A DNA stretch of 64,000 nucleotides from Turneriella sp. (GTDB lineage Bacteria; Spirochaetota; Leptospiria; Turneriellales; Turneriellaceae): NCBI GenBank assembly GCA_019186965.1, contig JABARV010000013.1, forward strand, positions 1,235 through 65,234. The letters are read 5' to 3'. The position numbers and the translations under genes were made by a program. Shown here in pieces: positions 1,000 to 36,579 of the stretch (positions are counted from its first letter, which is position 1; every line of letters begins with the position of its first letter). The notes under the pieces are model-generated. The model was not told where the DNA came from. It searched no databases and saw only the letters and a program-made list of their open reading frames with translations.

Positions 1000-1212
1000 C
1001 TAACGCGGAATTTACCTGACGTTTGGTGACGCTTGTGTCATTATTTTAGTCTGTAAAGCCCTTTTGCGTCACCAAATGTGCCCGAAGCGCCTGTCCGAGC
1101 CCGGCAAAACCAAGCTCCCGCTTGGCCGGGCGCAGGGCATCTTTGGCGCGTAGGGCCGAGCACGCTCGCCAACGGAGTGCGAGCGCGCGCAGCTTGTAAA
1201 TATTGTTGTGCG
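1000..1212 (-). repeat. attC-like structured recombination site a (subfamily 2)
   Basis: CTAAC-GCGGAATTTAC at the left and CTTGTAAATATT-GTTGT at the right pair as an outer stem. Three internal hairpins follow: TTTGGTGACGC..GCGTCACCAAA, GCCCGGC..GCCGGGC and GCTCGC..GCGAGC. The GGCCGAGCAC motif is conserved. Confidence 0.75.
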
Positions 1213-1217
1213 CAGTT

Positions 1218-1853
1218 TCATGTTCGGTCGCGATATTGCTTAACCATTTCTTGGATCGGTCGCAGATCCCATACAAAATTAACTTTTATACCCACATAGC
1301 CATTAAGCAATTCTGTATCGGTTCTTCCGGCTCGTTCGAAGAGGTTAGTATAGGTTAGGGCTGTAATGAGTTCGAGATTAAAATAGTAAGCGGACAGAGC
1401 ATTCTTTTCTGAGTCTGCATTAAGTTTAAGTCCAATGCTTGTCTGCCAGATCGCGCTATACCCGAAAGCATAGTAATCGACACCATTGGGGTTAGCCTTT
1501 TTTTCAAAACGACCAAGAGCAAATGTAGGGCCGTACCGCAGATATAATGTGTCATTCAAATCTATAAATCGGTGGTATTCAGGACCAGCGCCGACAAAAA
1601 TTCCCCGGCGACTAAAGTCATCATACAATTGGCTGGTTATAAGATCGATTCCTAAGCCAAAATACTGATTGTTCTTTCGCCAACCGACACCCTGGAAGGC
1701 GCCGAGGGTCGCGCTTTTGGGGGCACTCGCAAAGGGATATCCGGCTGAAACATTGAAATCGAAGGAAAGACCGGAAAGGTCGTTCTTGGCCGCTAACAGT
1801 TGCGTGTAAGTAACAGCCAGGATAAATATTATTTTGATCGAAATTTTCTTCAT
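1218..1853 (-). CDS. Hypothetical secreted protein, possibly an outer-membrane beta-barrel
   Basis: This is ORF 1218..1880 trimmed to the ATG at 1853 (MKKISIKIIFILAVTYTQLLAA signal peptide), with GGGAGA upstream. The sequence is Gly/Tyr/Phe-rich with alternating hydrophobic residues. Confidence 0.6.
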   Translation of the reverse strand: MKKISIKIIFILAVTYTQLLAAKNDLSGLSFDFNVSAGYPFASAPKSATLGAFQGVGWRKNNQYFGLGIDLITSQLYDDFSRRGIFVGAGPEYHRFIDLNDTLYLRYGPTFALGRFEKKANPNGVDYYAFGYSAIWQTSIGLKLNADSEKNALSAYYFNLELITALTYTNLFERAGRTDTELLNGYVGIKVNFVWDLRPIQEMVKQYRDRT

Positions 1854-1875
1854 TAAATCTCCCGTCATAAAATTG

Positions 1876-2125
1876 CGCACAACGTTGGATTTACGAGAAG
1901 TTTTGGCGGCGCACTATGTCAAATCTTTAATTGCGGTAAATGTATATTCAGCCGCCAAAATTTGCCCGGAGCGCCTGTCCGAGCCCGCCTAATGCAGCCC
2001 CATAGGGCGGTGGGCGCAGGGCATCTTCGGCGCGTAGGGCCGAGCACACGCGACGAGTCTTCGAGTCTCCGTCTTCGGTGGAGCAACGGCACCGCAGGGA
2101 GCGCAGCTCGTAAATCTTGTTGGGC
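1876..2125 (-). repeat. attC-like structured recombination site b (divergent, longest copy)
   Basis: ACAAC-GTTGGATTTACGAG at the left and CTCGTAAATCTT-GTTGG at the right. Internal hairpins and the GGCCGAGCAC motif are present. Confidence 0.7.
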
Positions 2126-2140
2126 GTAGGTCGCGAGAGC

Positions 2141-34070: not shown

Positions 34071-34295
34071 CAGACAACGTTGGATTTACAAGAAGTTGAT
34101 GGTGCGTCGCACAATAAATACAGTCTCCTTTCGAAAGCCGCATATTGACGCACCATCAATTTGCCGAACCCACAGCGTTGCGCCGCACCGAATGCACGTC
34201 ACGTGCGTGCGGCGTCAACGCTTCTTTGTGGGTGAGGCCGAGCACGCGACCCAACGGAGTGGTCGCGCGCGCAGCTTGTAAATCTTGTTGTCTGA
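34071..34295 (-). repeat. attC-like structured recombination site h' (exact copy of site h)
   Basis: Matches 9908..10132 from ACAAC onward wherever compared (offset +24163). Confidence 0.85.
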
Positions 34296-34411
34296 AGTAA
34301 ATGCGCCTTTCAGCGCGGGCACGGACGCCCGCGCGGCCCCCTGTGATGAGACCTTGTTTAGGCGATAGCTTGAAATTCAAAGTTGATTGCGCGCGATTCT
34401 GATTGACATGA

Positions 34412-35176
34412 TTGCAGCTAGCTGTGGTATACGGCGTGAAAGCTTACCATCGATCAAGCCTATTTGCAAAGCAGGTCTCTGTTTTCCTTTTTGCGATCTG
34501 GATGGCAAACCTAAACGCGACAGAATCGGCCGTGTATGTCGATAAATTCAATTATGTGATTGGGAGGAAAGCCCCCTCAAAAGATGCCGAATCCATAGTC
34601 GCAATACCATTCGGCACAAAGCTCTTCTGTAGACCAGATGGGCCAACGGAATCTATCATGTCAATGACAGGGCAATGGTATTACTGTAAGGATATTAAGG
34701 GTTACGTGTTTGGCCCGTTACTGACCGCAAGTCTGCCAGAAAAATCGAAATTACGGATGCGTTTAAAAGAAGGTTTTGTTTCGGATGCACATGGTCATAG
34801 CGGCACATTTTACCAGCTGCTAGCCAAGAACAAAACGGAATTCAGAGGTACGGAATATCTGGGCATAGCGGGAGAGCCGGAAAAAATTCCTGTGAAGGAT
34901 AAAGGTACTTACACTATCGAAAGTAACTATTTGATTATCACACGGCACGGAGAAAAGGCAGGAACCTACCGGTTAAAGTGGCATCCAAAAATCAACGCAT
35001 TTGTGGACGAAGAAGATTATAATACGGTTGATAAGATTTATCCAAAAATGGTGTTAGGAGACAAACGATATCAAATTAACCGCGAGCTTTGTGTTTTGGA
35101 AGAAGTAGAAGATATAAACGATAAACCGTTTCGAGTCTACGGCGGAGAAAGTTATTCTCTATACTGTCCCCAATAA
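34412..35176 (+). CDS. Hypothetical protein (copy 2 of the duplicated unit)
   Basis: The translation is identical to that of 10249..11013. Confidence 0.55.
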   Translation: MQLAVVYGVKAYHRSSLFAKQVSVFLFAIWMANLNATESAVYVDKFNYVIGRKAPSKDAESIVAIPFGTKLFCRPDGPTESIMSMTGQWYYCKDIKGYVFGPLLTASLPEKSKLRMRLKEGFVSDAHGHSGTFYQLLAKNKTEFRGTEYLGIAGEPEKIPVKDKGTYTIESNYLIITRHGEKAGTYRLKWHPKINAFVDEEDYNTVDKIYPKMVLGDKRYQINRELCVLEEVEDINDKPFRVYGGESYSLYCPQ

Positions 35177-35263
35177 AGCTGCAACGGAATGAATTGCATC
35201 GGTTGGGCGGACGCGTCGCCACGGATGGCGACGGAGTACAAAGGCGCATTTATTTCAGACAAC

Positions 35264-35352
35264 TCCTTTTCTACGTATTGCGTATATTCTCTGCGCGTCA
35301 AGACAAATTCCGCCATATTTCTACTAATAACTGCATATAATAATACTTTTCA
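35264..35352 (-). other. Putative attI-like primary insertion site region
   Basis: The duplicated unit ends at ..CAGACAA|C (35263) and unique sequence (TCCTTTTCTACG..) begins there. On the minus strand this reads ..AAAAGGAG|TTGTCTG. It lies between the first cassette and the recombinase gene. Confidence 0.6.
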
Positions 35353-36579
35353 GTGTGTTATACGCCCAAAAATATACCCTACACGATTATGACGTATAAT
35401 TACAACGTTAGCATCTTGAAAGACGACCTCGATATGCTCTTGCATAGGCCGTGGTATCGTGCCACGATACTTGAAGTCAAACACCTGATTGAAACGAACA
35501 TGCCACGCCAAAGCCCCGCCGAGCAGAACGCAGTCTTCGAGGCGTGGCAAAGAGAGCGACGACAATACATGCTCGAGGTACCTAGCATCTCCGGGCTTCA
35601 GCCCGGGGATATTAAAGATTCGCAGCAGCTACGGCCCGCTGATGTGAAAAAAAATATGCAGCCCCGTGTTACAACACAGAAATCCCAGCGCGATGCGGAC
35701 AACCACGCCCGGCTTGTAAACGACACTAGCCACAGACTTCAGTCTGTGGTCACCGGTAATTCGCTTGCCCTCAAAAAAATGATGCAACTGCGTAACTACG
35801 CGCACGCGACGATGCGTCAGTATGAGTTTTTGCTGCGCCACTTTGCTACGTACTGCGATGCGTTGGATGAAAAATTTTCACCGGCGGTCAGCGAAAAGTT
35901 GGTTGTCGACTACATGTTGGCGCGCCGCGAGGCGGGTTGGTCGACGACGACGCTGCGCACGTTTCGGGCGGCGCTGCGTCTCTATTGCGAGGCGAACGAC
36001 GCGCCGCGCGATTTCACGGTGATTCGTAATATAAAGAAAGAAAAGCGACTGCCGGTGGTGCTCACCGCATCCGAGGTGGCGCGGCTTTTGGCGACGATCC
36101 GTAATCCCAAGCATTGGCTGATGGTCTCGTTCATGTACGCGTCGGGTTTGCGCGTTTCAGAGGTCGTGCGCCTGCGCGTGCAAAACGTGAGCGTCGAGGC
36201 ACGCACGCTCACCGTACGGCAATCGAAAGGGCGCAAAGACCGCGTGACGGTGATTTCAGAAAAACAAGTGGCGTTGCTCGGTGAATTTATGGCGGGCAAA
36301 AATAAGGGGGATTTACTCTTTACATCGTCGCATGCGCCGCGTCGCGCATTGGCCGTGCGCTCGCTGCAAAAGGTGGTCGAACGTGCGCTCGCGCGCGCGG
36401 GTATTCAAAAGGGCGCAAGTGCGCATTCGCTTAGGCATTCGTTCGCGACGCACCTGCTCGAAAACGGTACCGACATTCGTTTCATCCAAAAGATGTTAGG
36501 ACACAGTTCGCTTTCAACAACGGCAATCTACACCAAAGTCGCGACGCACCAAATTGGTAAAATTAAAAGTCCGCTCTAA
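35353..36579 (+). CDS. Tyrosine recombinase (Xer/phage-integrase fold) with a long N-terminal extension; candidate cassette integrase
   Basis: Catalytic set: GLRVSEV (Arg), AHSLRHSFATHLL (HxxR), MLGHSSLSTT (His) and AIYTKV (Tyr). About 130 aa precede the SAM-like core-binding domain. The first ATG is at 35389; the listed start is non-ATG. Confidence 0.85.
   Translation: MCYTPKNIPYTIMTYNYNVSILKDDLDMLLHRPWYRATILEVKHLIETNMPRQSPAEQNAVFEAWQRERRQYMLEVPSISGLQPGDIKDSQQLRPADVKKNMQPRVTTQKSQRDADNHARLVNDTSHRLQSVVTGNSLALKKMMQLRNYAHATMRQYEFLLRHFATYCDALDEKFSPAVSEKLVVDYMLARREAGWSTTTLRTFRAALRLYCEANDAPRDFTVIRNIKKEKRLPVVLTASEVARLLATIRNPKHWLMVSFMYASGLRVSEVVRLRVQNVSVEARTLTVRQSKGRKDRVTVISEKQVALLGEFMAGKNKGDLLFTSSHAPRRALAVRSLQKVVERALARAGIQKGASAHSLRHSFATHLLENGTDIRFIQKMLGHSSLSTTAIYTKVATHQIGKIKSPL

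Follow-up and report, generated by a model that had tools for sequence, protein, structure and literature searches.

A 64,000-nucleotide stretch of the Turneriella sp. assembly GCA_019186965.1 (contig JABARV010000013.1, positions 1,235 to 65,234; hereafter the window, in whose coordinates all positions are given unless another locus is named) carries an array of gene cassettes, separated by large structured sites in a single orientation, which ends at a gene for an Xer-like tyrosine recombinase. We regard it as probable that this locus is a sedentary chromosomal cassette platform, integron-like in its working without being a classical integron. It has the architecture of an integron, i.e., an attI-like junction, AAC/GTT termini with R and L boxes, a co-oriented array and evidence of cassette movement, and departs from one in lacking the IntI domain and in the size of its sites, which does not fit attC.

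Fourteen copies of the site lie in the window, all on the + strand (163-221 bits, E <= 6e-41), and each was found by direct-repeat search, by nhmmer and by a covariance model. The model, whose construction had been proposed in a first-pass annotation made from the letters of this DNA, was trained on the 13 distinct copies (site h being identical to site n), and none of the three methods found a copy past the recombinase gene, from 36.6 to 64 kb. The positions, common orientation and termini that the annotation gave for its 14 copies, and their absence beyond the recombinase gene, are thus borne out, while the array itself is longer than described and continues past the left edge of the window. 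The cores, counted from AAC to GTT, are as follows.

Site a, core 1002..1207, + strand, model match 997-1214
Site b, core 1881..2121, + strand, model match 1876-2128, with a 29-nt insertion in hairpin 3
Site c, core 3250..3462, + strand, model match 3245-3469
Site d, core 5614..5819, + strand, model match 5609-5826
Site e, core 7137..7350, + strand, model match 7132-7357
Site f, core 8129..8342, + strand, model match 8124-8349
Site g, core 9023..9235, + strand, model match 9018-9242
Site h, core 9913..10126, + strand, model match 9908-10133, 100% identical to site n
Site i, core 11098..11305, + strand, model match 11093-11312
Site j, core 12156..12371, + strand, model match 12151-12378
Site k, core 19673..19888, + strand, model match 19668-19895
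Site l, core 29533..29739, + strand, model match 29528-29746, L' box degenerate
Site m, core 30055..30255, + strand, model match 30050-30262
Site n, core 34076..34289, + strand, model match 34071-34296, the final full site ahead of the recombinase

All copies open with AAC-G and close with GTAAAT-N3-GTT, in site l in a degenerate form (GGCCAACCATGTTGT), and the AAC and GTT are invariant both in the 14 window sites and in all 150 distinct family members assembled from the window genome and related genomes. The site consists of an R stem, a 3-nt bulge, an L stem and then a three-hairpin junction with the conserved motifs GA[A/C]GTT, CCGAG[C/G]AC and CGCAGC, in a core of 201-241 nt (~240-280 nt with its arms). 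The terminal stem and three hairpins, already seen in the first pass, are real as judged from folding z-scores and from covariation. A single copy folds better than shuffled sequence (z with DNA parameters = -7.1 for the + strand and -7.8 for the - strand), and 24 of 44 consensus pairs are maintained through two-sided changes among the 13 distinct window copies. Across the 150 sites, 97.8% of cells hold a standard pair, against 79.3% after column shuffles and 32-49% when the partners are slid; covariation scores 0.453, whereas shuffles give 0.119 (0/500 reach the observed value) and the slid controls 0.03-0.08. No Rfam family matches the sites.

The limits of the cassette unit are drawn by an exact duplication within the array.

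9911..11100, + strand, first copy of the duplicated cassette: site h core and a 254-amino-acid (aa) open reading frame (ORF) at 10249..11013 (+), with ACAAC on both sides
34074..35263, + strand, second copy: site n core and the 254-aa ORF at 34412..35176, adjoining the attI-like junction

The two segments are 100% identical over 1,190 bp, with identity limited exactly at the ACAAC boxes, and the right end of the second meets unrelated sequence (35264 TCCTTTTCTACG...). A duplication bounded in this way by ACAAC makes the unit a single site core together with the gene that follows it on the + strand, and the reverse complement of such a unit is a classical cassette, i.e., a gene followed by a site, with crossover at G|TT. 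The predicted crossover point lies in or next to ACAAC. The ends of the cassettes carry a second signature: the 19 nt past each GTT and the 19 nt before the next AAC form reverse complements, 13-18 positions out of 19 agreeing in all but one of the 14 cassettes (mean with that one included, 15.3/19), the exception being the cassette from j to k, which scores 8/19 ungapped due to a 1-nt indel. The two flanks of one and the same site agree at 7.9/19, which is background (7.5 +/- 2.8, n = 182 non-partner pairs). Because complementarity is found within cassettes and only background across sites, the coherent modules are the cassettes, and an R stem of ~22 bp would re-form if the inverted-repeat ends of a cassette were joined. 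There are also 'empty' cassettes with little beyond the two inverted arms, e.g., the 318 bp at 29740-30057. The first-pass site coordinates hold, but the functional site is longer than they imply, since the ~19-nt arms outside AAC and GTT, which belong to the neighboring cassettes, had been left out.

At its right end the array passes, through a truncated site, into the recombinase gene.

35242..35263, + strand, recombinase-proximal half-site, arm' plus AAC (AGGCGCATTTATTTCAGACAAC), 18/19 complementary to the arm that follows the GTT of site n
35264..35388, + strand, attI-like region, from the last cassette to the recombinase start; TTTTCT..GTATTGC and GTCAAGACA are conserved with the Turneriella locus L001
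35389..36579, + strand, tyrosine recombinase, 396 aa, XerA-type, without the IntI insertion; three-helix N-terminal module and disordered linker

The truncated half-site (...CAGACAAC|TCC) stops at 35263, leaving 125 bp to the start codon of the recombinase, with the array behind it, which confirms the intI-attI-cassette layout proposed in the first pass. In favor of an attI role, the half-site adjoins the gene, the neighboring cassette is a 100% copy of an internal one, and the junction is conserved with L001; junction sequence tracks recombinase subtype, the window resembling L001, and L092 resembling L106. We infer from the junction that insertion of cassettes would take place there.

The recombinase proved to be Xer-like and not an IntI, as the first reading had it, although the GTG at 35353 is not its probable start; the ATG at 35389 most likely is. 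Its best curated model is NF040815 (XerA_Arch), under which the window protein scores 209.8 bits with a cut-off of 220 that is passed by the family members P0121 (223) and the L122 protein (247). The XerC and XerD models give 170-171 bits against cut-offs of 330-335, and TIGR02249 (integron integrase) gives 178 bits against 265, in two separate stretches. When aligned with VchIntIA, residues 138-306 correspond to 7-174 and residues 335-408 to 244-317, so that the 69 residues of VchIntIA at 175-243, which hold the I2 helix, are represented by 28 residues, with ~40 missing; the IntI-specific domain is also absent from four other family members. An AlphaFold model (pLDDT 83) has a short loop at 302-322 in the I2 position and no extra helix, and upstream of the core-binding and catalytic domains it has a confident three-helix N-terminal module, a disordered linker and a long helix. 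Its fold is equally similar to VchIntIA (E = 4e-14) and to XerA (E = 5e-14). The catalytic R-K-H-R-H-Y residues are intact and there is a C-terminal SPL motif, both being conserved across the family. The 64-kb window holds no second tyrosine recombinase.

In the mechanism that we propose, a cassette would comprise a site core (AAC|G ... GTT, ~205-240 nt) and a body that opens with a ~19-nt arm and closes with the inverted arm and AAC, and the adjacent XerA-type recombinase would recombine sites at the AAC box. That the array-linked enzyme catalyzes the cassette reaction is the component we consider most likely, with good confidence. Recombination of site with site would release a cassette as a circle whose paired arms rebuild the R stem, an excision route to which we give a modest preference, and recombination of the circle with the attI-like site would place the cassette in first position in the array, next to the gene for the recombinase. 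The substrate would be the folded single + strand, with its R stem, 3-nt bulge, L stem and three-hairpin junction; here, too, we incline, with some reserve, towards single-stranded rather than duplex DNA. In the model-fitted alignment, three stem positions are near-invariantly G.T on the + strand (in 148, 147 and 141 of the 150 sites), arm position 11 is G.T without exception, and in the other paired columns G.T occurs 45 times vs 16 for A.C. In 93% of sites the + strand forms the more stable fold of the two strands, its mean advantage being 7 kcal/mol. It is the opposite strand to most cassette genes, and its 5' arm bears the AAC of the crossover side, an arrangement found likewise on the bottom strand that is recombined in classical attC (PMC2727003). 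This asymmetry favors the + strand as the putative substrate, in a manner suggestive rather than conclusive.

Scanning species-representative genomes with the 3' motif of the site, we found multi-copy clusters only in Turneriella, Leptospiraceae and other Spirochaetota assemblies, plus a few short contigs binned elsewhere. On the 3.9-Mb chromosome OW818662.1, 49 sites form one co-oriented region of ~49 kb whose right end is a same-strand homologue of the recombinase, while a 4.84-Mb Turneriella genome (CBDIID010000003.1) has one solitary copy and a pair of arrays, each in a single orientation, in which at least 57 and at least 34 sites were counted within the fetched blocks. The succession of array, half-site and recombinase recurs in four more Spirochaetota loci (L001, L092, L106 and L119), and a gap of 70-170 bp from half-site to same-strand recombinase is found at no fewer than five Spirochaetota and at six Patescibacteria loci. 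The L001 recombinase is 70% identical to that of the window, with R and L boxes changed compensatorily and the junction region conserved, and L001 has a 7.3-kb metal-efflux cassette in common with the window, among neighboring cassettes that differ; L092 is the end of the 49-site array, and its six cassette ORFs are all on the - strand. Array-linked recombinases diverge down to 40% identity within one spirochaete family and vary in their N-terminal extensions. Within a genome, the copied unit is the left core plus the body (97% identity between both CBDIID010000003.1 arrays), and three cassette bodies are common to different genomes at 87-93% identity, with similarity broken at the site edges.

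Beyond the spirochaetes, four weak and short model matches lay at metagenomic loci with compact Xer-like recombinases of ~270 aa, all on the same strand as the gene and three of the four just upstream of it. In these Patescibacteria the homologous sites are 60-180 nt long and read ATTTC-N4-AAC | G-T, L box, GA(A/C)GTT, one or two hairpins, L' box and GTT-N4-GATG, and their arms mismatch at positions 10-11, the same positions as in Turneriella. L122 shows a run of five cassettes, found only on the strand of the recombinase, including 'empty' ones at 8253-8299 (47 bp) and 5924-6035 (112 bp), L203 (a 203-kb contig) has three cassettes and a half-site, and L123, L126, L129 and L202 have one or two cassettes each. 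The recombinases are 65-90% identical across lineages and exceed the XerA-type cut-off. An aggregate end-repeat test over 52 usable Xer-like loci did not reach significance (AAC, 8 loci; control triplets, 2-9 loci; downstream control, 6/27), and we therefore limit the claim to the inspected loci with the GTT-N4-GATG / ATTTC-N4-AAC signature. An inverted-repeat scan of the four metagenomic loci was uninformative alone, although two of the L122 pairs proved to be cassette ends. Metagenome co-occurrence by recombinase alignment was tried and set aside, generic Xer-like genes of at most 47% identity dominating among the matches listed.

The system shares most of its plan with sedentary chromosomal integrons, e.g., the Vibrio cholerae superintegron with its VCR sites. 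In both, the recombinase is transcribed away from a co-oriented array that begins at a half-site junction, and a cassette consists of genes with one structured site distally, in which R''-L''...L'-R' boxes and AAC/GTT lie in an imperfect hairpin with unpaired bases. In both, structure is conserved over sequence, the better-folding strand is opposite the cassette genes, and tens of cassettes are rich in toxin-antitoxin, defense and hypothetical genes. Classical attC sites measure ~57-141 nt, and the cores here, at 201-241 nt, are about twice as long as the longest of them. The three-hairpin junction here is conserved along with its motifs, whereas the classical terminal structure is freely variable, some cassettes reach 7-10 kb, and the recombinase, without the I2 insertion and failing TIGR02249, has an extra N-terminal module of ~130 aa. 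The outer R pairing is cassette-specific and becomes hybrid in arrays, as it does for the R' box of classical attC (PMC2727003), but the R stem of the circular form is ~22 bp here and 7-11 bp there (PMC2727003).

Several observations weigh against the proposal of an integron-like platform. All of the evidence is comparative sequence, and the strand counts come from a model-fitted alignment in which three G.T positions are near-invariant. The I2 helix of IntI is held to be necessary for attC recombination (PMC7790495), so that another mode of recognition has to be assumed for a recombinase that lacks it. Between genomes, cassette bodies are conserved and site cores are only 59-65% identical, which a strictly one-sided crossover does not predict, and which therefore calls for crossovers on both sides of the core or for replacement of the core. 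The arrays of CBDIID010000003.1 lie megabases from P0017, the sole family recombinase found in that genome by tblastn of the fetched blocks and by homology search with the L092-type protein, and one array end has no recombinase. No array adjoins the genes of five close relatives of the recombinase, and three of these genes stand in a conserved FKBP-ZapA neighborhood, as a housekeeping gene would. A consensus sigma-70 scan of 35100-35900 found no promoter facing the cassettes, the consensus possibly not being that of the host, and the ORF of the first cassette aims towards the recombinase.

The main alternative, though we judge it unlikely, is that the enzyme is the Xer recombinase by which the host resolves chromosome dimers, working singly in the manner of XerS, XerH or XerA, and that the cassettes are hijackers piled up in tandem like integrative mobile elements exploiting Xer (IMEX). 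The match to NF040815 and the passing of its cut-off by P0121 and by the Patescibacteria protein agree with such a role, as do the 65-90% identity of the Patescibacteria orthologues over many lineages, which is core-gene-like, and the conserved position of three array-free Spirochaetota orthologues beside zapA. In a classification of tyrosine recombinases, the 'Cand' subgroup is treated as Xer substitutes in candidate phyla (PMC8138268), and since the family is presumed to replace Xer there, the window enzyme may have a housekeeping role. The CTX phage offers a folded single-stranded attP that is used without an I2 helix, and the same scenario has been proposed for the origin of integrons (PMC7790495). 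Like IMEX and the CTX phage, the locus combines a 'simple' Xer-related tyrosine recombinase with integrated elements that accumulate in tandem; unlike theirs, its units are promoter-poor gene cassettes with a uniform structured site, not self-equipped phages or islands. Single-recombinase Xer systems have their site beside the gene. The junction shows no evident palindrome of the dif type (28-30 bp). Divergence of array-linked enzymes down to 40% identity, with variable N-terminal extensions, would be unusual for a housekeeping protein, and a uniform structured site repeated through arrays of 49 to at least 57 cassettes implies that a dedicated process has been sustained. The pdif modules of Acinetobacter plasmids are likewise small gene modules, toxin-antitoxin pairs included, bounded by Xer-type sites; theirs are 28-bp double-stranded XerC/D-type sites in alternating orientation with no dedicated recombinase adjacent, unlike the structured, co-oriented sites of ~215 nt that end at a recombinase here. 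The host-Xer and the integron-like readings overlap, since Xer hijacking, too, would yield something resembling an integron, though as a by-product.

It is less probable still that the sites recombine as double-stranded DNA, the inverted arms being separated by a very long spacer and the hairpins acting as terminators, insulators or platforms for accessory proteins. Such a view could draw on site h, whose two strands fold near-equally with DNA parameters (-64.5 vs -66.8 kcal/mol), on the re-assortment of cores and bodies between genomes, as if crossovers occurred on either side of the core, and on the absence of the I2 helix that adapts IntI to single-stranded sites. It is opposed by the maintenance of structure without sequence over ~200 nt, with 2-3 pair types per column, the hallmark of a folded single strand, and by the one-strandedness of both the G.T positions and the folding advantage; since these favor the strand opposite the cassette mRNAs, a role as mRNA terminators is disfavored as well. 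We know of no precedent for a 'spacer' of 210 nt in double-strand tyrosine recombination.

Very improbable is a classical integron with long attC sites, its IntI encoded elsewhere and the Xer-like neighbor coincidental. The AAC/GTT core and the grammar of R and L boxes are those of attC, and clusters of attC sites without an integrase are common (PMC4889954). The second array of the 4.84-Mb Turneriella genome, which ends without a recombinase gene, and the distance of both arrays from the only family recombinase found recall these clusters of attC sites lacking integrases (CALINs), although CALINs are defined with classical attC models, and here the sites are oversize and the window array has its recombinase. 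At no fewer than five Spirochaetota and six Patescibacteria loci, the array is closed by a same-strand member of this gene family, the junction sequence co-varies with recombinase subtype, and the window offers no other tyrosine recombinase, all of which tells against a coincidence. That the repeat is a self-spreading element of the repetitive extragenic palindromic (REP), miniature inverted-repeat transposable element (MITE) or structured-RNA type, with genes caught between its copies, is scarcely credible. A few solitary copies do lie outside arrays (L078, L008, L075 and L045), but the dispersal around the genome that, in the first-pass account, would have told against the integron-like reading is not seen: the orientation is uniform in each array, and the copies of OW818662.1 lie in one region and nearly all those of CBDIID010000003.1 in two arrays. 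Neither cassette-specific inverted ends nor a duplication limited exactly at ACAAC would be expected of REP or MITE elements, and Rfam holds no matching family.

If the locus is indeed an integron-like platform, its wider standing can be stated only tentatively: we see a real, but somewhat less than even, prospect that it belongs to an unrecognized large sister lineage of integrons, in which XerA-type recombinases without I2, perhaps the cell's own Xer, would capture and accumulate gene cassettes through folded sites, the lineage being widespread in Patescibacteria and having grown, in Turneriella, to super-arrays that count 49 to at least 57 cassettes. The literature searched, whose coverage did not extend to subscription journals, has no description of integron-like arrays in Turneriella, Leptospiraceae or Patescibacteria. 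The I2 helix has been treated as the innovation that enabled recombination of folded single-stranded cassette sites (PMC7790495); were the sister lineage true, I2 would be no prerequisite for integron-type recombination, and the system would represent either a living stage of integron origin, with Xer plus a single-stranded element, or an independent solution. It would be a natural test of how folded sites are recognized and a second strand exchange avoided without I2, and the proposed evolutionary transition from Xer to IntI would become experimentally approachable. Detection tools need an IntI domain and attC of classical size, and the authors of IntegronFinder judged recombinases without the IntI domain not to be IntI on the ground that they co-localize with fewer than three attC (PMC4889954). 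Current surveys would miss gene-capture systems of this type, whose arrays make up ~1-3% of Turneriella genomes and which probably occupy many Patescibacteria loci, so that gene capture of this kind may be commoner and more varied than the tools show.

As in classical chromosomal integrons, the arrays hold adaptive and defense genes. The accessory-type cargo comprises toxin-antitoxin pairs, HerA, a reverse transcriptase, and metal and fluoride resistance, and in 9 of the 13 coding units the ORFs lie on the - strand, directed away from the recombinase, in agreement with the array direction reported in the first pass. The compact units with toxin-antitoxin cargo described there are partly confirmed: toxin-antitoxin pairs are present, but the units are not all compact, operons of 7.3 kb and 9.6 kb being among them.

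12372..19675, - strand, 7.3-kb cassette body: DUF3703, P-type ATPase, RND pump, OEP and a 126-aa protein
19889..29535, - strand, 9.6-kb cassette body: RND pump, OEP, EamA, DUF190 and CLC channel, with enolase on the + strand
9241..9907, + strand, BrnT/BrnA toxin-antitoxin cassette, in reversed orientation

The 7.3-kb metal-efflux body is ~75% identical to the L001 cassette, which stands in an equivalent relation to a site. In the 9.6-kb body, the CLC channel gene (26582..27952) is preceded by a fluoride riboswitch at 27962-28028 (-) (RF01734, 49 bits against a gathering score of 34), and because riboswitch, CLC channel, DUF190, EamA and enolase occur together, this cassette is a probable fluoride-resistance unit. 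The recombinase-adjacent cassette of L001 (5590-9220) has genes with LmuB_C, MC3 and CTD7 domains, by appearance a Lamassu-like or conflict system, so that defense systems are cargo there too. The cassette truncated by the left edge of the window codes, at 1-594 (+), for a C-terminal portion of a reverse transcriptase (RVT_1, with PADLOC matches to defense-type reverse transcriptases), after which 719-893 has a weak match to the RT-14 RNA motif (33.7 bits, under the gathering score of 48.1); this cassette may be a defense cassette of the retron or defense-associated reverse transcriptase (DRT) kind. An IS91-family (Y2) transposase gene at 30497-31681 (+), between sites m and n, adjoins the P-type ATPase gene at 31924..33936, and may have brought it into the cassette.

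Some minor features concern the surroundings of the recombinase gene. Directly downstream of it lies dprA (36694-37506, +), followed by an Smr-domain gene, and a tRNA gene stands at 38425-38495 (-), ~1.8 kb downstream of the recombinase gene. The product of dprA protects single-stranded DNA during natural transformation. Transformation is reported to drive cassette shuffling in chromosomal integrons (PMC12614218). The FKBP-ZapA synteny of some relatives, considered as proof of a housekeeping role, was rejected as such, not being common to the window, whose downstream genes are dprA, smr and riboflavin synthase. A motif, TTTAC(A/G)...TGTTCTAT-N3-TGTTCTA, is conserved ~20-60 nt before the recombinase start in L002, L003, L121, L118, L119, L092 and L106, i.e., in array-linked and array-free family members alike, and is not found in the window or in L001; it comprises a -35-like box and a tandem repeat, the latter a candidate operator.

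Others concern sites and contigs in other genomes. The oddly binned short contigs with arrays (L027 and L049, 'Flavobacteriales'; L029, L081, L089 and L109, 'Chlamydiae'; L063, 'Nitrospira') are probably misbinned, since L081 is 99-100% identical to Turneriella STL-SPI1. A degenerate, truncated and inverted site lies at 7992-8152 (-) of L002, 2 kb upstream of the array-free P0017 in the 4.84-Mb genome. Segments of ~1.26-1.6 kb that are 94-99% identical (L013 4926-6552; L115 699-2316 and 6838-8000; L113 1810-3377; L104 1513-2770) occur in both arrays of that genome, and are probably an insertion sequence or a repeatedly inserted cassette. Of the solitary copies, that of L045 (7637-7854), in the pathogenic Leptospira alstonii str. 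79601 (NZ_ANIK01000016.1), is a single full site, 97% identical to Turneriella sites, which adjoins a TIR-domain-like gene and represents either recent horizontal acquisition or contamination.

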